Below, piece by piece: positions 602 through 14,862 of a stretch of DNA of 24,000 nt; the first letter of the stretch is position 1, and the number at the start of each line of letters is the position of its first letter. Origin of the DNA: Balneola sp. (GTDB taxonomy: Bacteria > Bacteroidota > Rhodothermia > Balneolales > Balneolaceae). The notes below the pieces were generated by a model. The model searched no databases. It saw only the letters and a list, made by a program, of their open reading frames with translations, and was not told the origin of the DNA. The position numbers and the translations under genes were made by a program. The DNA lies in NCBI GenBank assembly GCA_048058975.1, contig JBLLNP010000010.1, positions 59,473 through 83,472 of the forward strand. Direction: 5' to 3'.

Positions 602-1021
602 ATGACTAGTTACGCCGAAATAATTTACCTGACAGTTGCGATGGTGGTTTTTTCGATGCTTTCTATAAATACTGCCAAGAATTTTAACACTTCCCGAAGC
701 AATATTTACAGAACTGAGCTCGAATACAGAGCCATTGCAGTAGCACAGGATGAACTGGATAAGGTTCAATGGATTTATGATGACAATGAGCTTGATCCCA
801 ACAATGCTTCGTATGTGTATGCCAATTATCCTATCACAGAAACTCATACGTATGGCTCAAGCAATGAATACAGCAGCAGCTATGTAATTGATGCCCATTC
901 TGTGCTAATTGGCGACAACGGTAGCCAAAAACGATACCAGGTTACTGTAAGTGTTTTGAATGATGAAGTAAATCCGGACGTATTTATTACCATGGACTAT
1001 GTAAAATCCTATTCATATTAA
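602..1021 (+). CDS. Small N-terminally anchored pseudopilin-like protein (minor-pilin-like); hypothetical
   Basis: 139-aa ORF preceded by AAGGTG. It has a single N-terminal hydrophobic helix (SYAEIIYLTVAMVVFSMLS) with a Glu near the N-terminus, but no canonical G/FTLIE prepilin cleavage motif. The stop lies 10 nt before the next SD-preceded ATG. Confidence 0.6.
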   Translation: MTSYAEIIYLTVAMVVFSMLSINTAKNFNTSRSNIYRTELEYRAIAVAQDELDKVQWIYDDNELDPNNASYVYANYPITETHTYGSSNEYSSSYVIDAHSVLIGDNGSQKRYQVTVSVLNDEVNPDVFITMDYVKSYSY

Positions 1022-1030
1022 GGAGTAGTT

Positions 1031-1618
1031 ATGAATGTAGGTTTAATGACGACTTTTGTAGTAGGTGGGCTTTTCATGATCTCGATGCTTGCCTTTAATC
1101 AACAGCTTATTACTGGTTCTCAGGAATTTATGTTGAGTACCATCAGCCAGGACTATCTGGATGAAGTAGTAACTGTGCTTTCTAACGATTTTAACCGGAT
1201 TGGATACAATACCGGAATAGCTGTTCCATTTACTACCCTTCAGACTAACAACATCATTTTTCAAGCTGATGCTTATGATAATGATAATTACGGTGCTACT
1301 AATATTCGCTGGTACTTTGATACAAGCGATCCTGTAACTACCACCGAAAATCCTAATGATTACTATTTGAAAAGAGAAGGGCCGATAACGGCGAATACGT
1401 ACGGTACAATTAAGTTTCCTGTTACCGTATTTAAGCTTAGTTACTATACCGCAGATGGTACTGCAACCTTTGATAAGAATTCAGTAAAGAAAATTGAAGT
1501 TCAGATTATTTCAGAATCAAGTGATGCTTATACCGTTGGTAATGGAAGTGAAGAGTTTTATCCAAAAAATGTTTGGAAACGTATTTTCGTGCCAAACAAC
1601 ATCAATTTGCCATATTAA
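1031..1618 (+). CDS. N-terminally anchored pseudopilin-like protein; hypothetical
   Basis: 195-aa ORF with an AAGGAG SD 6 nt upstream. The N-terminal helix is LMTTFVVGGLFMISMLAF and the remainder is beta-rich. It is tightly coupled to the flanking genes. Confidence 0.6.
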   Translation: MNVGLMTTFVVGGLFMISMLAFNQQLITGSQEFMLSTISQDYLDEVVTVLSNDFNRIGYNTGIAVPFTTLQTNNIIFQADAYDNDNYGATNIRWYFDTSDPVTTTENPNDYYLKREGPITANTYGTIKFPVTVFKLSYYTADGTATFDKNSVKKIEVQIISESSDAYTVGNGSEEFYPKNVWKRIFVPNNINLPY

Positions 1619-1630
1619 AGAGGAGTTATT

Positions 1631-3058
1631 ATGGGAAAGAGTCTTTTATTTTTAGTTGGAGGGTTAACCATTATAACCGGGTACATGCAGGTTCAGAATA
1701 ATCAGCGCCTGCAAACCCTTCCGGAAGTTACCGCTGCTTATTTTGAAGAGCAGCAGGCTAGAAACATTGCTAAAAGCATGATTGACAATGCCATTGAGCA
1801 CATGAAAGCCAACAATAGCTGGACAGACAGCCTTGAGATTACAGATGTAATGAATGTAGGCTCGGTACTTAACCGAGACTTACTACAAACAAAAAATATT
1901 GTAAAGTTGGTCAAAGCTGGAGGGGAACGCCCAAGCAACCAACAACAAGAAATAGAAGCAGACCAGTTACTGGCAGCAATGGATCAGGCAGGGATAAGTG
2001 GTTCCCTCAAAAGTTATACCCAAAGTTCAACCAATATACCTGTAAATAACAGCGTAGGAACCTGGGATGAATACAAAGTACTGTTGGTAAGTACCAGCAC
2101 CTATGACGGAATAGAAATCACAACCGAAGTACTTATGCAGCGGGATTCATTCTCAAAATACTCTTATATGACGGATGATGAGCTTAGTTCTGCGGGTTCT
2201 GACATTTGGTTTATGGGTTCAGATAATATTTACGGGCCAATACACACCAATGGTACTTTTAAGATGTCCGGTACCCCTTCTTTTTATGGATTGATTACGA
2301 GCCCGAATAACTGGGTAGCTCACTCCACAAACGGGGCAACCCCAAATTTCTACGGTGGGGAGAATTTCAACGCACCTACTAAAAGCTCGCCCAGCAGCTA
2401 TGAAATTTCAAAATTAACTACCGCTGCTGCTAGTGGAGGTTTAAGCTTTACTAACCAGTTAGATATTCGGTTCTATGAAAGTGGAGGTGTTGGATACGCT
2501 GACATCAATGAGTGGAACGGTACTTCATGGAGCGGTATAACTACCTATAACCTAAGTACTACTAATGGAGTGATTTCTACTACTGGTCGTGTTGATGTTG
2601 AAGGTGTTATAAAAGGGCAGATAACTCTGCATTCTGAGTCTTTGATTGAGATAGATGGTGATATCACCTATTTTACTAATCCACTTGTGGATTCCAGTTC
2701 TACTGATATGCTGGGCATAGTTAGCGAAGATAACGTACGTATTGATGAAAATGCTCATTCGGCATCGGGTTCTCTCGATTTAGATATTCACGCTTCCATT
2801 ATGGCAATGAATACCTCATTTTATGTAGAGAATTATGCTTCCTATAGCCCCAGAGGCTCCTTAAACCTACTTGGTGGCCTTATTCAAAGAAACCGGGGTC
2901 CAGTTGGCACTTTTTCCGGAACAACTATTGTATCCGGCTTTTCTAAAAACTATCAATATGATGGTCGTTTGAAAGGATCTATTCCTCCACATTTTCCAAG
3001 AGAAAGTATATTCTCTATTGTGTATTGGAAAGATGAAGTTGTAAAGGTTACAAATTAA
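1631..3058 (+). CDS. PilX-N-like anchored large fibre-associated protein (possibly PilX_N/DUF4900-type); hypothetical
   Basis: 475-aa ORF with a GAGGAG SD upstream. The N-terminal helix is SLLFLVGGLTIITGYM. The motif IYGPIHTNGTFKMSGTPSFYGLITS and the repetitive beta-rich C-terminus recall PilX-like type IV pilus accessory proteins. This assignment is from memory and is not verified. Confidence 0.55.
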   Translation: MGKSLLFLVGGLTIITGYMQVQNNQRLQTLPEVTAAYFEEQQARNIAKSMIDNAIEHMKANNSWTDSLEITDVMNVGSVLNRDLLQTKNIVKLVKAGGERPSNQQQEIEADQLLAAMDQAGISGSLKSYTQSSTNIPVNNSVGTWDEYKVLLVSTSTYDGIEITTEVLMQRDSFSKYSYMTDDELSSAGSDIWFMGSDNIYGPIHTNGTFKMSGTPSFYGLITSPNNWVAHSTNGATPNFYGGENFNAPTKSSPSSYEISKLTTAAASGGLSFTNQLDIRFYESGGVGYADINEWNGTSWSGITTYNLSTTNGVISTTGRVDVEGVIKGQITLHSESLIEIDGDITYFTNPLVDSSSTDMLGIVSEDNVRIDENAHSASGSLDLDIHASIMAMNTSFYVENYASYSPRGSLNLLGGLIQRNRGPVGTFSGTTIVSGFSKNYQYDGRLKGSIPPHFPRESIFSIVYWKDEVVKVTN

Positions 3059-3062
3059 ACTA

Positions 3063-3458
3063 ATGAGAACTATTTTCACCCTACTCCTTCTGGGGGTATT
3101 TTCTCTGTTCGGCTCTTCTACTATTGAAGCGCGGCAGCAAGTAACATTTAACGTTAATTTGAAACCTCAACTTGAGGATAGCATATTCGTTCCCGGAAGA
3201 GATCAACTACAACTTGTGGGAAATTTACAACCTATCAATACAGCTCGTCCTTATTTTTTAACAGATACGGAACCGATCGATAGCGTTTACAGTGTAACTA
3301 TTACATTCCCTGGTAGATTTCGAAATCAGACTCTTATCTACAATTTCGAGATGACTGTTAACTACATCAAACAAAAAGAAAGCCTGGAACGCAGGCTGCT
3401 TCTGCGTACGGGTGAAGTGGAATTGGACGCACTATATTTCAATGCTTTTGCCTGGTAG
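3063..3458 (+). CDS. Small secreted beta-sandwich-like protein (CBM20-like pattern, weak); hypothetical
   Basis: 131-aa ORF starting 4 nt after the previous stop. The signal peptide is MRTIFTLLLLGVFSLFGSSTIEA. The strand pattern is VTFNVNL...LQLVGNL...YSVTITFP...IYNFEM. Confidence 0.55.
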   Translation: MRTIFTLLLLGVFSLFGSSTIEARQQVTFNVNLKPQLEDSIFVPGRDQLQLVGNLQPINTARPYFLTDTEPIDSVYSVTITFPGRFRNQTLIYNFEMTVNYIKQKESLERRLLLRTGEVELDALYFNAFAW

Positions 3459-6882: not shown

Positions 6883-6905
6883 CACATTGGTATTCATCAT
6901 AATTA

Positions 6906-9893
6906 ATTCATTCACTGGTCATTATTTTATGTTGTTTATTTAGTTCTACCATTGTAAACGGCCAAAATAGTGATGATGAAGATTTTGAAGTATACCTGTC
7001 TTTTCGACACCGCGGAATAATTAACACGGTTATCATTTCTTATTATAAGAATGATGAATTCTATCTTCCTGTAAACGATATTTTCTCTAAGTTTCAGATT
7101 GAAACTGAAATTTCAGGTATTAAAACCTCCGGGCGCTTTGGCGTAGAACAAACTCCCTATTCTATTGATTTCACAGAACAGGTTATCCGTTTTGGGGATG
7201 AAAGTTACACCCTCACCAAAGAAGAGTTTCTGATTAAAGATCTGGACAATTATATGCCCGCAAGAATATTTAATGAAGTATTCGGGCTTAATTTCGAAGT
7301 AGATTTTAATAACCTCGCTCTTTCTCTCGATACAGAAAAAGAACTACCTATCGTTGAACGTGCAATCAGAAATCAGAGAAGAAATTTAGCCAATCAAAAC
7401 AGAACGGGGATCTCCTATTTCCCGCTAGAAAAAAAACGATCCTTCAGTTTGCTGGATGGTGGCTTTGCTGATTATAGTTTCTCATCGGCCACTAACCGTG
7501 AACGAACTAATTTTAGTGCAAGTACAGCTTTAGGGCTTCAACTGGCAGGTGGGGACCTTGAAGGCACTATTTTTGGAAACTACAACAAAGATGATTCCTT
7601 TATTGAAACTAATTCACTTCGCTGGAGGTACGTCATCAGAAACAATCCGGCAATATCAACCATTACAGCTGGACAAACTAACCTTGATGGCGTTGTAAAT
7701 GCGCCATACACTGGTATTAGACTTACTAATCAACCTAATGAACCCAGAAGATTCTTTGATGAGTTTGCAATCGATGGAAATACTTTCCCGCTTTCTGAAG
7801 TTGAACTCTACCTGAATAATTCACTTGTTGACTTCCAGACTGCTGATGACGCCGGGAATTACCGATTCCTCACTCCTTTATATTATGGCTCTTCCCAGCT
7901 GGATATCCGAATTTTTGGCCCGACAGGTCAAACAGTGGAACAATCTTCCAGAATTCAGGTCCCTTTCACTTTTTTACCCAAAGGAGTGCTAAACTATAAT
8001 CTAAATGCCGGTATTCTGGATAATCCCCTTTTCGGAACTACAGAACGAACCAATGTTTTTACTGCAAACTCTGCGTTTGGAGTAACAAAATGGATGACTG
8101 CAAAAGTAGGGTATGAGTTTTATGAAGGCTCAGGAATTGTGGAAGATAATTCCGCTTTAACAGGAACTATCTCTTCTCGGCTGCTTTCGAATTATATACT
8201 CACCCTCGAAGGTGTTTCAGGTGGGTATTACCGCTCTGCTCTTAATGCCGTTTATGCCAGTTCCGCAAGTATTAATGTTGATTATATCAACTTTATTGAC
8301 AATGCGACAATCTATAACAGTTCGAGTAATGATCAACAAATCCTGGCAAATGTCTTCTTCCCCATTTCTCTTGGGAACTTCCCTTTAAGTGTCCGTACCT
8401 CCATTTTCTCCCGGTTTAGAGATGACATCAGTTTTTCTACGTTTCGTATGGATCTTAATGCTCGTTTGAGGAAGTTGAATTTAAGACTAGGTTATACCGA
8501 GCGATTAAACAACTCATTCCAGGTCTTTAACTTTGAGAATAATTCTACCCTTGAAGCTGCATTAACCTACAACGTACCAAGGACAAGAGACATACCAGGC
8601 TTCATTCGCGGCACTTTATTCAGAGGTCAATTCCGGTACGATCCAAAGGAAAAAAAACCGGAAATATTTGAATTACTGTATTCAAGAAGTGTAACAACCA
8701 ATGGGAGGTTGCAGCTTACCTTGGGCAGAAACTTCCAATCAGAATTTAACTCCATTCGCTTCAATTTTGTGATAGATTTTGGGAAAGTAAGGTCTAATTC
8801 TACATTTACAATGCTGGGAGATAATTATAATGTCACTCAAAACTTCAGGGGATCAGTTGGGTACGACTCTAATTACAAGAACTTTTTATTCACAAGCAGA
8901 GACCAGGTAGGAAGATCGGGGGCCGCTGTTAAGCTATTTGTTGACAACAACAATAATAACACCTTTGACGAAGGAGATGAGCCTATTAACGAAGGCACCA
9001 TTCGGGTTGGGCGAAGCGGTACATCTTCTACTCAAAAAGACGGGATTTTTTACTATACACAGATGTTGCCCTATTTCCAGTACAATCTGGAAATGAATAA
9101 AGGCTCTATCAGAAACCCTATGCTTGTTCCCGAACTGGAGAAATTCTCGATTATTACCGATCCCAACTCTTTCAAAAAAATTGAAATTCCGTTTTACATG
9201 TCTGGTATTATTGAAGGAGAAGTAATCAGACAATATCTAAACGGAGGTGAAAAAGGTATTGGTGGTCTTAAACTGGTATTAAGCTCTTTAGAAAAGGATT
9301 TTGTTAAAGAAATCAGAACGTATTCTGATGGAAGTTTTTATGAATATGAATTGCCTCCGGGTAAATATGAAATTGTTGTAGATCAGGGACAGCTGGACAT
9401 CCTGAACTCGAAATCTCTCCCTGAAAAAATTGAGCTCGAAATCGAAGCTATACCCGAAGGAGACTTCCTTGAGGGAATAAACTTTACCCTTGTCCCTGTT
9501 GATTTCGAAGAACAACCTGAGGAAGTAGAAACCGTAACAGAAGCTCCGGTTACCTTAGCGGATGTCCCCATCGAAATAATTAATTCCCCTGAAGTTATCC
9601 TTTATGAACAACAGCTACTTACTAATGTTGAAAAAGCTTTACGTTTGATTATTCTAACGCAAAATGCCTTCTTCGAAAAAGACTTTGAAACCGCATTTGG
9701 CTATATTAATGAGTCACTTAACAACTTCGAGACGGCACAAGGATACGCTTTAAAAGGCAGTATACAGTATTTTCAGGGAGACCGAACCGGTGCAGTAACC
9801 AGCTGGAGAATGGCTTTGCGGTTCGATCCTGATATTTACATCCCTACTCTCGAAGAGTTAGATCAAAAAGTAACGGTTAGTTCTTCTGAATAA
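6906..9893 (+). CDS. Usher-like outer-membrane fimbrial assembly protein with a C-terminal acidic linker and TPR-like extension; the 5' end is uncertain (no canonical start before ATG 7254)
   Basis: The frame is open from 6903. Codons 6906-7253 encode a signal-peptide-like segment (IHSLVIILCCLFSSTIVNGQ) and an usher-N-domain-like segment (EVYLSFRHRGIINTVIISYYKNDEFYLPVNDIFSKFQIE). The body has an amphipathic beta-strand pattern rich in aromatic-terminated strands (TAKVGYEFY, LRLGYTERL, LEAALTYNV, IRFNFVIDFG). Two beta-sandwich-like modules follow, including GIIEGEVIR...GGLKLVL...TYSDGSFYEYELPPGKYEIVV. The first ATG/GTG/TTG in frame is at 7254. Confidence 0.6.
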   Translation: MHSLVIILCCLFSSTIVNGQNSDDEDFEVYLSFRHRGIINTVIISYYKNDEFYLPVNDIFSKFQIETEISGIKTSGRFGVEQTPYSIDFTEQVIRFGDESYTLTKEEFLIKDLDNYMPARIFNEVFGLNFEVDFNNLALSLDTEKELPIVERAIRNQRRNLANQNRTGISYFPLEKKRSFSLLDGGFADYSFSSATNRERTNFSASTALGLQLAGGDLEGTIFGNYNKDDSFIETNSLRWRYVIRNNPAISTITAGQTNLDGVVNAPYTGIRLTNQPNEPRRFFDEFAIDGNTFPLSEVELYLNNSLVDFQTADDAGNYRFLTPLYYGSSQLDIRIFGPTGQTVEQSSRIQVPFTFLPKGVLNYNLNAGILDNPLFGTTERTNVFTANSAFGVTKWMTAKVGYEFYEGSGIVEDNSALTGTISSRLLSNYILTLEGVSGGYYRSALNAVYASSASINVDYINFIDNATIYNSSSNDQQILANVFFPISLGNFPLSVRTSIFSRFRDDISFSTFRMDLNARLRKLNLRLGYTERLNNSFQVFNFENNSTLEAALTYNVPRTRDIPGFIRGTLFRGQFRYDPKEKKPEIFELLYSRSVTTNGRLQLTLGRNFQSEFNSIRFNFVIDFGKVRSNSTFTMLGDNYNVTQNFRGSVGYDSNYKNFLFTSRDQVGRSGAAVKLFVDNNNNNTFDEGDEPINEGTIRVGRSGTSSTQKDGIFYYTQMLPYFQYNLEMNKGSIRNPMLVPELEKFSIITDPNSFKKIEIPFYMSGIIEGEVIRQYLNGGEKGIGGLKLVLSSLEKDFVKEIRTYSDGSFYEYELPPGKYEIVVDQGQLDILNSKSLPEKIELEIEAIPEGDFLEGINFTLVPVDFEEQPEEVETVTEAPVTLADVPIEIINSPEVILYEQQLLTNVEKALRLIILTQNAFFEKDFETAFGYINESLNNFETAQGYALKGSIQYFQGDRTGAVTSWRMALRFDPDIYIPTLEELDQKVTVSSSE

Positions 9894-9895
9894 CA

Positions 9896-11755
9896 ATGCA
9901 TTCGATTAACAACTTACATATCGGATCAGGTTTTTTACCATGGAAGAAGTACACCCTGAATTGGATGAAAACTCTGTTTTCCTCTATTCTGTTTATTGTT
10001 ATTGCTGTTTTAACATTTTCGGCTTCAGTTCTTGCACAAAACGCTGTTGATCCAGCAAATTCTCAGTCTCTCGATCTTAAAGTCTCCTCGTTGGAGCAAA
10101 GCTATGATGCCCAGGTTTACTTACTGCTCTCTAATTACTTCGACCGTAAAAAATTCTTCGTAAATACAGGAATAAACGCAGAATTTGTTGATGAAACTAT
10201 TGAAACTACTTCGAATGCGATCGTCAGGAATCAACCGGATCCGATAATTATGCCTGGTCTTCCCTTCCTTCCTCAGGAGAATCTAAGACAACCGAGCGGT
10301 ATCGGCGAGTCGCCTGAAACAGTCGTAAATCAAAATACGGTTCGCACTCTACGGTTAATTGATGTGAATATCAGTATCTATGCTGATACCTCCTTTAATG
10401 CTGAGGAAATCCAGTTTATGCGATTACTAACGGGAATTTCTGCGAAAATTAATGAATCCCGTGGCGATGTAATCACCATTGCTCAGATCCCTATTCCAAA
10501 ATTCGGAGATGATGACCCTGTTCGTATTGTTCAGACAGAACCGGAAGATTTTAACCTTGTTGCATCATTCAGGCAGTACATTCCAGGCTTTGTACTTTTA
10601 TTTTTGTTTGGCATGATTATGTTTGTAAGTCACTACTTCAACAACAAATCGAACAATAATCGCGTCTCTCCTCTCCAGCAAAGAGAGAGTATTAAACACG
10701 ATATTAGCATTAGTGACTACAATCCCCGCACAGTAGAACAAGTAATGGTAAATGGGAGTACTCAACGGGATCCTTCCATTGAAGTAGATGAATTGATTGA
10801 AAGCTTCTTTACCAAATCACAGGAAATTTCCCTCTTATTTGAATTCTGGATGTCCGATTCTCCTGAAGAAGGAATTACTAAAGCAGCTGAAGTAGTGGCT
10901 AGTGTTGACCAAAGCCTGCTTAGGGCCATCAAAAATGATATGCAAAGCGAAAACTATGAAGCTATTGTTACTGCTTTGGAAGAGTTACAACCGATGACCT
11001 CTGAGTATAAAAACTCGGTAATCAGAAATTTCAATTCCGTTCTTCGATCAGGAAACAAAAACTCACTCAGTTCAAAAAAGAACGGTCACATTACACTTTT
11101 CAAGTTTTTAGATCATATCAACGAGCGCCAAATGGTGAACCTGTTAGAAGACGAAGGCTACCAAACCGGAGCTTTGATTTTAGATTATCTGCCAGATGAT
11201 AAAGCTGCACGTATACTCGATCGTCTTGATAAAACGAAGAGTACAAACATCATGCTTAAAATGACCACTATAAATACCATCCCCTACAAACTTCAGAGTG
11301 AGATTTCTGCCCGGTTGTTTGAAAAGGCAATGGATTTAATTGATGAAGAGCGCGAACAGCGTCTTGGAGCGGAAAACATACTGCCAGTACTTGATAAACT
11401 TCCCCTTAGCGAGCAACAAAATTATATCGACCAACTAAAGGCAACAAATTCTATAGTAGGCGAAATTGTAGAACGACAGTTTATCACGGTTGATCAGGTA
11501 ATTAGCCTGACAGACGATATCATAAAAGATGCACTCAAAGATATAAACACCTCCACCCTGTTGGATGCCATCATCGGGCTGGATCAAAAACTGATCGATA
11601 AAATCTTATCCGTAAGGCCAAGAAGAGAGCAACGACTAATTCGCCTTGAATTAAGTGAAATGGGAGGTAATACTTCGAAAGATACTACCTACGCGAAAGC
11701 TAAAATGATGGAATCTATTCGAAATACTGTGAAAGAATCCAAAAAAGATCAGTAA
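9896..11755 (+). CDS. Membrane protein combining a FliF/SctJ-like periplasmic segment, a TM helix and a complete FliG-like (N, M, C) cytoplasmic region
   Basis: The ATG lies 2 nt after the usher stop, and an alternative ATG at 9965 gives MKTLFSSILFIVIAVLTFSASVLAQ|N. The periplasmic part ends ...TLRLIDVNISIYADTSFNAEEIQFMRLLTGISAKINESRGDVITIAQIPIP, followed by the TM helix YIPGFVLLFLFGMIMFVSHYF. The cytoplasmic part contains LLEDEGYQTGALILDYLPDDKAARILDRL (FliG-M, EHPQ-motif region) and LLDAIIGLDQKLIDKILSVRPRREQRLIRLELSEMG (FliG-C-like). Confidence 0.7.
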   Translation: MHSINNLHIGSGFLPWKKYTLNWMKTLFSSILFIVIAVLTFSASVLAQNAVDPANSQSLDLKVSSLEQSYDAQVYLLLSNYFDRKKFFVNTGINAEFVDETIETTSNAIVRNQPDPIIMPGLPFLPQENLRQPSGIGESPETVVNQNTVRTLRLIDVNISIYADTSFNAEEIQFMRLLTGISAKINESRGDVITIAQIPIPKFGDDDPVRIVQTEPEDFNLVASFRQYIPGFVLLFLFGMIMFVSHYFNNKSNNNRVSPLQQRESIKHDISISDYNPRTVEQVMVNGSTQRDPSIEVDELIESFFTKSQEISLLFEFWMSDSPEEGITKAAEVVASVDQSLLRAIKNDMQSENYEAIVTALEELQPMTSEYKNSVIRNFNSVLRSGNKNSLSSKKNGHITLFKFLDHINERQMVNLLEDEGYQTGALILDYLPDDKAARILDRLDKTKSTNIMLKMTTINTIPYKLQSEISARLFEKAMDLIDEEREQRLGAENILPVLDKLPLSEQQNYIDQLKATNSIVGEIVERQFITVDQVISLTDDIIKDALKDINTSTLLDAIIGLDQKLIDKILSVRPRREQRLIRLELSEMGGNTSKDTTYAKAKMMESIRNTVKESKKDQ

Positions 11756-11760
11756 CTCCT

Positions 11761-12303
11761 ATCAGGAAGAAAAGAAACATATCACTGGTAACCTTTAGCT
11801 TTCTGGGTATTTTTTTACTCTCTTTAGCTTGTGGATCATCAAGAGAAACCTCATCTCCTGCGGAAACTCCGACTGTGCAGGATAATAGTGTGAATATTGT
11901 CGATACTCCCGTTCAAGCAGCTCTTGAGGACACTGTAAGTCCTGAACAGAAACGCAGAGAACAACTCACTGAGCTTTATAAAGAAGAATTAAGCGATCAA
12001 TATCAGGCAGATGCTAACGGATTGATTAACTTCTACATTCTGGCACAGCAACGTTTTTTTACTGGCGATTACCAAAACGCGCTTATTCTTATTAATCGTG
12101 CGGCTTCAATAAAAGAAAATGCAGATGTACTGGCTTTGAAAGGCAGCATTTACCTTGGTCTTGGGCAAACTGAGAATTTTGTGGCTAATTGGAGACAGGC
12201 ACTGGAATTGGATGCAGATGTTCCAATCCCCCCTCTCCCTTATATAGTACAGCAGCTACAACTAAATGGGTTGTTAGACGAAAATCTTCAAAAGGCTTTT
12301 TAA
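11761..12303 (+). CDS. TPR-like lipoprotein; the 5' end is inferred at a non-canonical ATC (first canonical start is GTG 11875)
   Basis: The frame is open from 11704. Codons 11761-11832 read (I/M)RKKRNISLVTFSFLGIFLLSLAC|GSS, a textbook lipoprotein signal with lipobox Cys. The C-terminal half (FFTGDYQNALILINRAASIKENADVLALKGSIYLGLGQTENFVANWRQALELDADVPIP) is TPR-like and paralogous to the usher C-terminus. Confidence 0.6.
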   Translation: MRKKRNISLVTFSFLGIFLLSLACGSSRETSSPAETPTVQDNSVNIVDTPVQAALEDTVSPEQKRREQLTELYKEELSDQYQADANGLINFYILAQQRFFTGDYQNALILINRAASIKENADVLALKGSIYLGLGQTENFVANWRQALELDADVPIPPLPYIVQQLQLNGLLDENLQKAF

Positions 12304-12304
12304 A

Positions 12305-13102
12305 GTGAGAACTTCTGTATTAAACATTTTAAGCTTTCTGGTTTCCGTAGTATTTCTTGGATGGGGAGCACTCCTCGTAATGGGATTTACCCAATATGAT
12401 TTAATCCCATCTGAATATAGCTTTCTTAACCTGCCTAGTTTGGCCATCGTTTTTGGCGGAATTTCTGCCAGTGTTTTTATCAGTTATCCGTTTCGTAAAG
12501 TAGTACAGGCCTTAAGAGACAGTACCAAGTTGTTTTCGCAGAGTACCATTACCGACGAGATGCTTGAACGGGATATAGATGATATCCTGGAATGGCAAAA
12601 AATGATAAATGCCGATAAAATTCAGGCTGTTTCCGAGCTTAGCAAAACCTACAACGATCGTTTTGAAGGATATCTTTTTTCCGTGCTGGATACCAATTAC
12701 TCAACCGAGGAATTGAGAGAGCTAGGTGAAATAAACATCACAGAAAACTACACAAGGCAGCAGCAAATAAACCAGATCATAGCCAGTATGGGACGAACCT
12801 CACCCGTTTTTGGTATGCTTGGAACCCTTTTTGGACTTGTAGTAATTCTTTCGGGATTTAGTGAAGTTGAATCTTTGCTAACCGGTCTTGGAGCAGCCTT
12901 AATGACTACTCTTTACGGAATCATAATTGGGAACTTTGTTTTTACCCCAATGGCAAAAAAGATGAATAATATTGCTTCTTTGCAATATTTCCGCGAAAAA
13001 CTAATCCTGGAGGGGATTATTCTTATCGAAGAACGAAAAACATCCCTACAGATCTACGACCGCTTGCAAGCACATATGCGTCGGGGAAGTTATAAACTCT
13101 AA
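12305..13102 (+). CDS. motA: MotA/PomA-type proton-channel stator subunit (MotA_ExbB family, 4 TM)
   Basis: The GTG start lies 1 nt after the previous stop. There are two N-terminal TM helices, a cytoplasmic loop of about 100 aa, then SPVFGMLGTLFGLVVILSGF and LGAALMTTLYGIIIGNFVFTPMAKKM. These are the conserved TM3/TM4 with the Pro residues typical of MotA. The topology is 4-TM MotA-like rather than 3-TM ExbB/TolQ-like. Confidence 0.8.
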   Translation: MRTSVLNILSFLVSVVFLGWGALLVMGFTQYDLIPSEYSFLNLPSLAIVFGGISASVFISYPFRKVVQALRDSTKLFSQSTITDEMLERDIDDILEWQKMINADKIQAVSELSKTYNDRFEGYLFSVLDTNYSTEELRELGEINITENYTRQQQINQIIASMGRTSPVFGMLGTLFGLVVILSGFSEVESLLTGLGAALMTTLYGIIIGNFVFTPMAKKMNNIASLQYFREKLILEGIILIEERKTSLQIYDRLQAHMRRGSYKL

Positions 13103-13113
13103 GAGCTTTATTT

Positions 13114-14862
13114 GTGGAACCTAAGCCACTAAATAGTAATCGTAATTCTTTATTTCCGGGTGAACCATTCGAACCGGAAGATGACGAAAGCTGGCAGGTT
13201 AGCTATCTGGATATCATCACAATTATTTTAGGTTTCTTAATCATACTTCTGTCTGCTTCCCAACTAGCTAAAACTGATTTTACTTCACTATCTACGTTAT
13301 TTGGCAATAACTCAGACCGAACCGAATTCATCACTACCCCGGTTGAGGAAATACAGGAAGAACTGGAAACTCTTCTCCAAACCCAAATAGAACAAGAACG
13401 TTTAGAAGTTATCCGTGACTTAAATGATATCAGAATCCGATTCAGAAGTGACGATTTCTACCCTTCAGGAAGTGCAAATATACAAGGATCCGGACTGGAT
13501 TTACTGAACCATGTTCTGCGTGCTTTCCAGCAAACTACCTACAACGATTTTAGCATCGATGTTGAGGGACATACCGACAACGTCCCTATCTCATCTGATC
13601 AATACCCTTCGAACTGGGAGCTTTCAACGGCTCGTGCTTCCAACGTAGTGAAGTATTTCAATCAAATGGGTATTGAGCAAGATCGCCTTAAAGCATCAGG
13701 TTTTGCTGATTCCCGGCCATTAATTCAGTTTGATTCATTTGGTAATCCATTTGCTGCAAGCAAAGAAAAGAACCGAAGAGTTGTACTCCGCTTATATTAT
13801 ACCACAGAAGGACTACAGCGGCAGGCTACTCAGGATGCACTCGCCATACGTGATAACCCGCCTGTGAACGCTGAGGAGGAGGTCTCTCAGCCTGCTGCAT
13901 CAACCGCCGAACAACTTGCTCAGGAAATTGCCCAGATCAGCACATCAAACCAACAGGAACTCATTCCTGAACCTGAGACCCCTCCCGCCCCGGCTCAGAC
14001 CCAGACACCTGTACCTGATCCGACCCCAAACGAAGAAATTTCTCAACGAATCCCTCCTTCTGTCGAACCGGAATCAGATGATACATTACCATTTATTCCT
14101 TCTGTGTTTGATCAGGCTGCATCATGCGATTTTGTGGTTCAAACAGGAAGTTATCAATCACTTTCAAGTGGCTTCCAGGTAGCTAAGAATTCTGAGAATA
14201 AAAGTGGATATGAATTTGAAGTCTCATACAACAATTCGTTGTATTCTGTCCGCTCAAATAAACTTGGATCGCTTTCTAATGCACTATTTGTTCAGAATAT
14301 TGTTTCTAAAGCTTTGAATGAATCCACTATAGGAATTGTGCATCAATGTTATCAATCGAGGCAGCTCGCACCTGAGACACTAACCTATCAGATTCAGTTT
14401 GGAGCATTCAGAAACCAGGAAAACGCACTTAATTATACTATGAATGTGCTGGATCAATACGGAATTCAAACCTATATGAACCGAAGAGGCTCTACGTATC
14501 TTGTAGTTGCAGGGCCTTATACAGGCAGAGAAACTGTGACCGAACAATTACAGGCATTCAAAGAGAAAGGAGTTACTGAAAAAATATATATCCGCCATAC
14601 TGATGAATCTGTAAAGGAATATAATTTTATCTATCAAGTTCAATTGGCTTCATTTTCTAGTCAAAGCGAAGCAAGAACGGCCTTACAGCAAATCCAAACA
14701 AATCTTCAGATTCCGGTAAGCGTTAAACAGCTGAATGATGGAAATTACTATGTGGTCTCAGAAAGGATTACAGACTGGGATGAAACCACTCAGCTCTTCA
14801 GTCGGGCACAAAACAGCAGCTTGAGCTTGAAGCCTGTGATATACTATCTGGAATATCTGTAA
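13114..14862 (+). CDS. motB: MotB-type stator subunit with an OmpA-like peptidoglycan-binding domain, a Pro-rich linker and three C-terminal SPOR-like domains
   Basis: GTG start. The MotB N-terminus WQVSYLDIITIILGFLIILLSAS carries the invariant TM Asp (D33, nt 13210-13212). The OmpA-like core is IDVEGHTDNVPISSDQYPSNWELSTARASNVVKYF...GFADSRPL...NRRVVLRL (nt about 13420-13800). The linker is PEPETPPAPAQTQTPVPDPTP. SPOR-like units lie at about 14125-14313, 14380-14583 and 14626-14838. Confidence 0.8.
   Translation: MEPKPLNSNRNSLFPGEPFEPEDDESWQVSYLDIITIILGFLIILLSASQLAKTDFTSLSTLFGNNSDRTEFITTPVEEIQEELETLLQTQIEQERLEVIRDLNDIRIRFRSDDFYPSGSANIQGSGLDLLNHVLRAFQQTTYNDFSIDVEGHTDNVPISSDQYPSNWELSTARASNVVKYFNQMGIEQDRLKASGFADSRPLIQFDSFGNPFAASKEKNRRVVLRLYYTTEGLQRQATQDALAIRDNPPVNAEEEVSQPAASTAEQLAQEIAQISTSNQQELIPEPETPPAPAQTQTPVPDPTPNEEISQRIPPSVEPESDDTLPFIPSVFDQAASCDFVVQTGSYQSLSSGFQVAKNSENKSGYEFEVSYNNSLYSVRSNKLGSLSNALFVQNIVSKALNESTIGIVHQCYQSRQLAPETLTYQIQFGAFRNQENALNYTMNVLDQYGIQTYMNRRGSTYLVVAGPYTGRETVTEQLQAFKEKGVTEKIYIRHTDESVKEYNFIYQVQLASFSSQSEARTALQQIQTNLQIPVSVKQLNDGNYYVVSERITDWDETTQLFSRAQNSSLSLKPVIYYLEYL

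Follow-up and report, generated by a model that had tools for sequence, protein, structure and literature searches.

Fibre assembly across the outer membrane that draws on no external energy source has its textbook example in chaperone-usher pili, and a locus in which an usher gene stands at the head of a run of rotor and stator genes raises the question of whether pore and motor belong to one machine and, if so, what would join them. The stretch of DNA in question (the window) comprises 24,000 nucleotides (nt) from Balneola sp. (Bacteroidota; Rhodothermia; Balneolales; Balneolaceae; GenBank assembly GCA_048058975.1, contig JBLLNP010000010.1, positions 59,473 to 83,472 of the forward strand), in which genes for an outer-membrane usher, a FliF/FliG-like protein, a lipoprotein, and MotA- and MotB-type proteins follow one another with gaps of 2, 5, 1, and 11 nt. 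An earlier note on this window proposed that the usher C-terminus and the body of the lipoprotein are copies of one duplicated, periplasmic, tetratricopeptide repeat (TPR)-like module, and took this as a hint that the fimbrial and motor modules are functionally one system. The observation is confirmed here and the interpretation is partly supported. The usher and the lipoprotein carry paralogous TPR modules, which we regard, with a probability of about one half, as a docking adaptor by which the usher in the outer membrane is joined to the rotor and stator on their periplasmic side. The features on which the argument turns are as follows.

6906..9893, forward strand: outer-membrane usher of 995 amino acids (aa), recognised from an AlphaFold2 (AF2) model and Foldseek; true start codon uncertain.
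9498..9569, forward strand: disordered acidic linker rich in Pro, Glu, and Val, usher residues 865-888 (predicted local distance difference test score, pLDDT, below 50 for residues 870-884; identity breaks here in sister pairs).
9570..9890, forward strand: usher TPR tail, residues 889-995, in which a long lead-in helix precedes two TPR hairpins and a capping helix closes the domain (AF2 model, TPR profile matches).
11761..11832, forward strand: lipoprotein signal peptide with the lipobox L-A-C (read from the sequence; lipobox at 11824-11832, Cys codon at 11830-11832).
11833..12303, forward strand: mature TPR lipoprotein (Pfam TPR_8, E 2.5e-6; BLASTP against the usher).

The two segments singled out in the earlier note, 9639-9860 in the usher gene and 12025-12246 in the lipoprotein gene, fall inside the TPR tail and the mature lipoprotein, respectively, and their translations read exactly as quoted there. 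BLASTP aligns these two 74-residue stretches without gaps, with 28 identities in 67 positions (42%; E 5e-15), which is higher than the one third that had been counted by eye, and identity over the full 85-column module is about 30%. Their Smith-Waterman score of 118 compares with 22.9 ± 4.2 for 2000 shuffles (maximum 45; z = 22), none of which scored as high. With its flanks included, the BLASTP alignment of lipoprotein and usher spans 136 aa, and nearly the entire mature lipoprotein finds its match in the last ~125 usher residues; the likeness reaches past the repeats into the lead-in helix and into the D-P-x-[IV]-P-[IV]-P/capping segment.

TPR proteins are numerous, and the similarity could in principle be chance, or the generic likeness that any two TPR repeats share. 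The usher tail alone scores under the Pfam TPR thresholds, and a profile of the module matches 29,065 proteins at E <= 1e-3 in a library of 1.8 billion proteins, mostly multi-repeat TPR proteins, which swamped that search of 1.8 billion representatives so that a clean view of distant module relatives was not obtained. Within the 3.18-Mb genome of the window itself, however, only three sequences match the lipoprotein segment at E < 1e-8, namely the two window copies and a second lipoprotein, 207 aa long, on another contig (C1), and the next-best TPR match stands at E 0.02. In 40 relatives, matches to a three-sequence profile likewise form two separate groups, the family at E < 1e-17 and other TPR proteins at E > 6e-8. 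This separation of scores, the z-score against shuffles, the extension of the likeness to the lead-in helix and capping segment, and the well-supported module clades described below lead to the rejection of chance or generic resemblance, the likelihood of which we consider negligible. Nor is the module a ubiquitous one, the possibility that the earlier note had named as weakening its claim.

A search with TPR hidden Markov models, also suggested there, gave a divided answer: the lipoprotein scores 27.6 bits against TPR_8, over the curated cut-off of 25.7, and the usher tail alone reaches only 13.9 bits (E 0.064) against TPR_2, under its cut-off. The usher family profile matches consensus TPR proteins in the PDB at positions 919-980 (E 5e-4), and the module profile similarly retrieves TPR proteins. 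Rather than three or more tandem repeats, the module has two recognisable ones and a long lead-in helix; the AF2 model predicts antiparallel helical hairpins closed by a C-terminal capping helix, with helices at usher residues 895-923, 927-940, 944-956, and 960-973 and the cap at 982-988 (pLDDT 84-93). The module is, in short, minimal and TPR-like yet a bona fide TPR, and represents a specific family and not a generic TPR. All module groups share, among other residues, A-Q where helix A1 begins, E-x-A, A-L-K-G-S, W-x-x-A, and D-P; except in a group of Bacteroidota from outside the order of the window (f36), these are followed by [IV]-P-[IV]-P, after which the capping helix begins. In one library representative of 639 aa (P0306), a full-length module lies at the C-terminus (residues 555-637) and no further Pfam domain is recognised; this protein could be either an usher cut short or a third kind of architecture.

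Both copies were described in the earlier note as periplasmic, and this placement is supported. The C-terminal domains of FimD and PapC are periplasmic, and the usher tail should be periplasmic too, since it follows the corresponding domains. The second copy lies behind a lipobox signal peptide. There is no canonical start codon upstream of this signal peptide, the first in the frame being GTG at 11875, but the leader encoded upstream of that GTG is a basic and hydrophobic signal peptide ending in L-A-C, the Cys of which is conserved in homologues that have ATG starts. The designation as a lipoprotein thus holds on sequence grounds, and translation probably begins at a non-canonical ATC at 11761. 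The mature protein consists of a Ser/Thr/acidic tether of ~35 residues followed, from ~11932, by the helical domain homologous to the usher tail. In the public collection, gene callers truncate the lipoprotein to 142 aa and the usher to 879 aa.

The identification of the usher itself depends on structure prediction. Its AF2 model, built with 80 homologues (mean pLDDT 81.9), starts with an N-terminal domain and a large barrel that contains a less confident internal segment, followed by two beta-sandwich domains (residues 672-864), a disordered segment (865-888), and five helices (895-988). In a Foldseek search of the PDB, the first 19 places are all taken by FimD or PapC (E 1.5e-28 to 2.4e-8, up to 930 columns), with FimD 9bog_D (E 1.5e-28) and PapC 7lhg_C (E 4e-22) as the top matches over ~900 columns. 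The barrel with its plug, the periplasmic N-terminal domain, and the two C-terminal Ig-like domains of the usher architecture are all found in this comparison. Sequence searches are far less telling: Pfam PF00577 (Usher) does not match the window protein at E <= 1, a homologue (P0183) scores 25.8 bits against the Usher cut-off of 27.1, and no usher was matched when the family profile was compared by sequence with the PDB. By its predicted fold, the 995-aa protein is a genuine FimD/PapC-type usher. The linker sits between its second C-terminal beta-sandwich and the TPR tail, whereas in the solved structures of FimD and PapC nothing follows the second C-terminal domain, so that these ushers lack such a tail, as the earlier note had supposed of canonical ones. 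The usher frame is open from 6903, with its first canonical start at 7254. A signal-peptide-like stretch follows the TAA at 6900-6902, perhaps with a start at ATT 6906; the first ATG lies 117 codons further on.

Whether the tail has anything to do with the motor depends on the genes that follow it.

9896..11755, forward strand: FliF/FliG-like bitopic inner-membrane protein (Pfam FliG_M, 7e-12; FliG_C, 1.2e-10).
12305..13102, forward strand: MotA-type stator A subunit (Pfam MotA_ExbB, 1.5e-16).
13114..14862, forward strand: MotB-type stator B subunit with plug, OmpA-like domain, Pro-rich linker, and three SPOR repeats (Pfam MotB_plug, OmpA, and SPOR).

The FliF/FliG-like protein has a signal/anchor sequence, a periplasmic domain of ~190 aa, a transmembrane helix, and cytoplasmic FliG_M and FliG_C domains; its orthologues match YscJ_FliF_C weakly, below threshold. 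The MotA-type protein matches the NCBIfam MotP, PomA, and MotA models at E 1e-24 to 1e-29, all under the equivalog cut-offs. Because neither FHIPEP (FlhA) nor flagellin was detected in this 90%-complete genome, and its sole FliG_C frames are those of the window protein and of a paralogue on contig C1, the motor is judged by gene content to be non-flagellar. A scan for promoters and terminators gave counts at chance level.

The usher family is present in 180 of the 283 genomes of the order. For 76 usher loci that were fetched the tail was classified, and 75 of these, with at least 2.5 kb of downstream sequence, entered the count of co-occurrence. A TPR-tailed usher is followed by a FliG-like gene and a TPR lipoprotein at 35 of 35 loci, compared with 0 of 40 for ushers that have a SPOR tail or none. 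The FliG-like gene begins 0-90 nt after the TPR-tailed usher, the TPR lipoprotein lies about 1.8-2.5 kb beyond, and most of these loci continue with MotA and a MotB that bears three SPOR repeats. Downstream of the ushers with a SPOR tail (one to five repeats) or no tail, none of the genes of the motor set occurs within ~10 kb; three Gracilimonas records show called genes there. Both module copies are thus kept in the window and at 34 other loci from three families of the order, which answers in the affirmative the earlier note's question of whether orthologous clusters retain the pair.

On a tree of usher bodies, the tail state switches at least 12 times, even within genera, and 12 of 12 independent contrasts are concordant (sign test, p = 0.0005). 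In eight sister pairs of one TPR-tailed and one SPOR-tailed usher, identity along the body, mostly 50-98%, holds to the end of the second C-terminal domain and drops to noise at the linker; the five closest pairs are 58-98% identical over most of the body, and the three more diverged pairs less so. The usher tail and everything downstream of it accordingly constitute a replaceable 3' cassette joined at the acidic linker, of which the tail is the first 320 nt. The loss of similarity between sister pairs falls precisely at the linker, and by descent the TPR tail is thus part of the motor cassette and not of the usher body.

A block exchange of this kind would also arise if the TPR tail had a motor-independent job and merely hitch-hiked with the motor genes. 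It might tether the usher to the wall or to some other envelope protein, assist usher insertion in the manner of TPR pilotins, or receive chaperone-subunit complexes. Tail and FliG-like gene are only 2 nt apart and are swapped as one block, and for this reason their co-occurrence needs no functional link; furthermore, the alternative SPOR tail is a wall-binding domain, which suggests anchoring as the generic role of such tails. Hitch-hiking sits less comfortably with the ancestry of the tail, the closest relatives of which are the cassette's own lipoproteins, or with the finding that none of the 35 TPR-tailed ushers lacks an adjacent FliG-like gene and lipoprotein. It is also at odds with the core place that the lipoprotein has in cassettes without an usher, to which we now turn.

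The same genome holds a second motor cassette without an usher, on contig C1 (L007 7069-12123). It encodes a FliF/FliG-like protein (611 aa), a 367-aa protein, a TPR lipoprotein, MotA, and a short MotB without SPOR repeats. The 367-aa protein is predicted (pLDDT 83) to have an alpha/beta domain in the periplasm and, after it, a small barrel in the outer membrane, and among its Foldseek matches are TolB, the C-terminal domain of LpoB, and barrels of the OmpA/OmpW type; it was considered as an usher homologue and rejected (hhalign probability 2%). Metagenome-assembled genomes of Bacteroidota outside the order, which carry mixed labels (Chitinophagaceae, Ignavibacteriae, or Bacteroidota), share the arrangement of a gene for a ~390-aa protein followed by those for the TPR protein, MotA, MotB, and the FliG-like protein. 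The adjacency of TPR protein, MotA, and MotB is kept in the C1 cassette and in these genomes, with a neighbouring gene in every case that encodes a protein of ~370-390 aa; of the four such proteins from outside the order, one matches the 367-aa protein (BLAST E 9e-8) and the other three show no match. In a sample of 400 genomes of the phylum, the module is confined to the order of the window and one family outside it. Given its retention in the C1 and out-of-order cassettes, the TPR protein belongs to the core of a motor cassette with an outer-membrane partner of its own. This motor cassette is composed of five genes, encoding the outer-membrane partner, the TPR protein, MotA, MotB, and the FliF/FliG-like protein, and the usher-linked cassette looks like a derived version in which an usher stands in place of that partner.

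These simpler cassettes bear on a further possibility, which the earlier note had raised as one form of the link, namely that tail and lipoprotein bind each other and that the lipoprotein is the motor-side half of a TPR-TPR bridge. The constant company of the two copies in usher-linked clusters would suit such a bridge, as would the flexible tether on which each is carried. The paralogous and ancestral cassettes, however, hold a single TPR protein and have no TPR on the outer-membrane partner, so pairing of this kind is not the original function of the module; two-repeat TPRs more usually bind peptides or other folds, and there is no excess similarity or co-variation of the two copies within genomes. 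On balance a TPR-TPR bridge is improbable.

The history of the module is recorded in a tree of 92 rows, in which the usher tails form one clade (support 99/94), the lipoproteins of usher clusters form another (99/72), and the two together stand apart from the paralogue-type and out-of-order proteins (97/88); approximately unbiased (AU) tests leave other sister arrangements of the clades possible. The duplication predates the split of the three families of the order, and the copies arose by this old duplication within the usher-linked motor cassette and then evolved separately under purifying selection, which agrees with the duplicated module that the earlier note had proposed. At deep divergence the usher tail is as conserved as the body (45% vs 40%), and because its conservation matches that of the body the tail is considered to be under purifying selection.

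Two near-complete genomes from another family of the order (G040 and G262) show which parts of the cluster persist when it is reduced. The rotor protein of G040 (L021 9895-11460) has a LysM domain, a periplasmic domain, and FliG_M and no FliG_C, having apparently gained the first and lost the last, and the rotor remnant of G262 (L095 10311-11189) is a protein of 293 aa that can be aligned with the window protein over periplasmic residues 119-195 of the latter. MotAB is absent beside either reduced cluster, and the genomes hold only a distant MotA (27% identity). Both retain the usher tail and the lipoprotein. Survival of the tail after the loss of FliG_C and MotAB would be expected if its job had nothing to do with the motor; the tail does not survive alone, however, as the reduced clusters also retain the lipoprotein along with the rotor protein's periplasmic part. 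Weighed with the evidence above, hitch-hiking is unlikely, though it must be reckoned with. As far as two genomes can indicate, the reduced clusters point to the periplasmic part of the rotor protein, and not the stator, as the partner of the module.

The reading that we prefer is that of a docking adaptor, and the steps it implies can be set out as follows. Each module copy hangs on a flexible tether, provided in one case by the usher C-terminal domain and in the other by the lipid anchor, and would serve to dock the usher, in the outer membrane, to the rotor/stator unit from the periplasmic side. Both copies would probably bind the same periplasmic partner, for which the periplasmic domain of the FliF/FliG-like protein would be the first choice and the periplasmic part of MotB the second. 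One free TPR protein would have done this for the small beta-barrel protein of the ancestral cassette, and the usher that replaced this partner would have acquired a covalent TPR copy of its own. We infer on this basis a coupling of usher and motor, for which the TPR tail is the best candidate as a physical link.

Several observations weigh against this reading. Co-inheritance is what linkage alone would give, as the tail abuts the FliG-like gene, and it cannot by itself prove a shared function because tail and motor genes form one linkage block; the two forms of the locus, moreover, share no homology downstream of the linker. Identity between tail and lipoprotein is 30.0% within a genome and 29.4% between genomes, which by this crude measure reveals no co-evolution, and this equality also indicates that there has been no gene conversion. 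Both modules of G262 are on long branches, which may reflect relaxed constraint. In family f6 a TPR-tailed usher is accompanied by a short MotB without SPOR repeats, and the either/or placement of SPOR described below is not universal. Most directly, about half of the sampled ushers have a SPOR tail or no tail and no motor, from which it follows that the fibre does not need the motor. The proposal that fimbrial and motor modules are functionally one system is therefore upheld in one respect, in that the tail is evolutionarily part of the motor cassette, but it cannot mean that the usher needs the motor, since many relatives have the fibre genes without it.

A bolder version of the docking reading would have the TPR copies act as clamps that hold an ion-driven rotor and stator (a FliF/FliG ring with MotAB) under the chaperone-usher pore, producing an usher powered by protons or sodium. 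We consider this doubtful. If true, a powered usher would be a surface-fibre machine not described so far, and the junction of tail and linker would be the plug-in point at which a passive usher is turned into a powered one.

The SPOR repeats provide a further perspective on the exchange of tails. They are found on the usher in motor-less relatives and on MotB at the window locus, an either/or placement that fits a common wall-anchored assembly. The three repeats of MotB align collinearly with the SPOR tails that ushers carry in motor-less relatives (22-28% identity), and no other frame of the window genome matches the MotB SPOR tail at E 1e-3. A recent deletion that fused the usher to the MotB SPOR array was considered as the origin of the SPOR-tailed ushers and rejected, as identity between the arrays is no more than 22-28% even in a case where the usher bodies share 81%. 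The MotB and usher arrays are old classes (~25% identity) with no recent interconversion.

Upstream of the usher, the window encodes a candidate chaperone and four DUF4402/SCPU-like subunits. The chaperone-like protein (318 aa) has a signal peptide and gave no Pfam or PDB sequence match, and one of the four small subunit genes reaches DUF4402, right at the threshold. Directly upstream of the subunit genes, at 602-3458, are three pilin-like genes with N-terminal hydrophobic helices and a gene for a 131-aa protein. These genes hold the same position in relatives; two motor-less Gracilimonas clusters have three unannotated genes of similar size in that position (matched by size and position only), which are absent from G. 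mengyeensis.

What the locus adds, then, is a real usher with a domain that is paralogous to one of the core components of a non-flagellar FliF/FliG-MotAB cassette, a domain exchanged along with that cassette. Should the module dock pore to motor, it would define an interface of ~100 residues that bears on whether an ion-driven motor acts on an usher. New regardless of docking are the modular C-terminal tails of ushers (TPR or SPOR on one linker) and, in Bacteroidota, the motor cassette of five genes that includes an outer-membrane partner of its own. Literature searches on non-flagellar FliG-like/MotA systems, DUF4402, chaperone-usher systems with FliG, MotA, or MotB, and ushers with SPOR found no description of this system, and in a term search of a survey of MotAB relatives "Bacteroidota" is unmatched and "FliG" matched once (PMC12505986).

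Among known systems, the window usher resembles FimD and PapC in predicted fold over ~900 columns, including the N-terminal domain, a barrel of the 24-strand type with a plug-like segment, and two C-terminal beta-sandwiches (Foldseek E 1.5e-28 to 1e-14). It differs in having no significant sequence match to Pfam Usher or PDB ushers, in the added linker and TPR domain (SPOR repeats in relatives), which are absent from solved ushers, and in being directly followed by rotor and stator genes. Small periplasmic TPR adaptors encoded in trans-envelope operons, several of them lipid-anchored, include the PilF/PilW pilotins, BamD, and CpoB/YbgF of the Tol-Pal system, which is itself driven by a MotAB-like 5:2 motor. 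Each of these has three or more TPRs, and a library profile search revealed no homology of the module to them above the generic TPR level. We know of no envelope TPR lipoprotein that is a paralogue of an usher-fused domain.

For the rotor protein, the nearest published analogue is the natural FliF-FliG fusion of Chlamydiaceae, which in a non-flagellated organism joins a membrane-anchored, FliF-like periplasmic part to FliG domains (PMC4768692). The chlamydial protein differs in keeping only FliG_M and in not being encoded with MotAB, a TPR lipoprotein, or an usher. For the module, flagellar motors offer the closest comparison. A TPR protein is reported to be encoded near flagellar genes in about half of flagellated species, and in Campylobacter jejuni the stators are connected to the MS-ring region by spokes of PflA, with a rim of PflB holding the MotB dimers (PMC11870540). 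MotX, a Sel1-like repeat (SLR) protein of the Vibrio T-ring, is a looser parallel of the same kind. PflA and PflB have many repeats and extra domains and act in a real flagellum, whereas the copies described here have two repeats and are lipid-anchored or fused to an usher; the window genome shows no FlhA or flagellin, which limits the comparison with PflA/PflB, as with MotX/MotY, to functional analogy. As periplasmic TPR-type proteins that are encoded with a MotAB-type stator and act on it, PflA and PflB are nonetheless the nearest functional precedent for the module shared by the usher and the lipoprotein.

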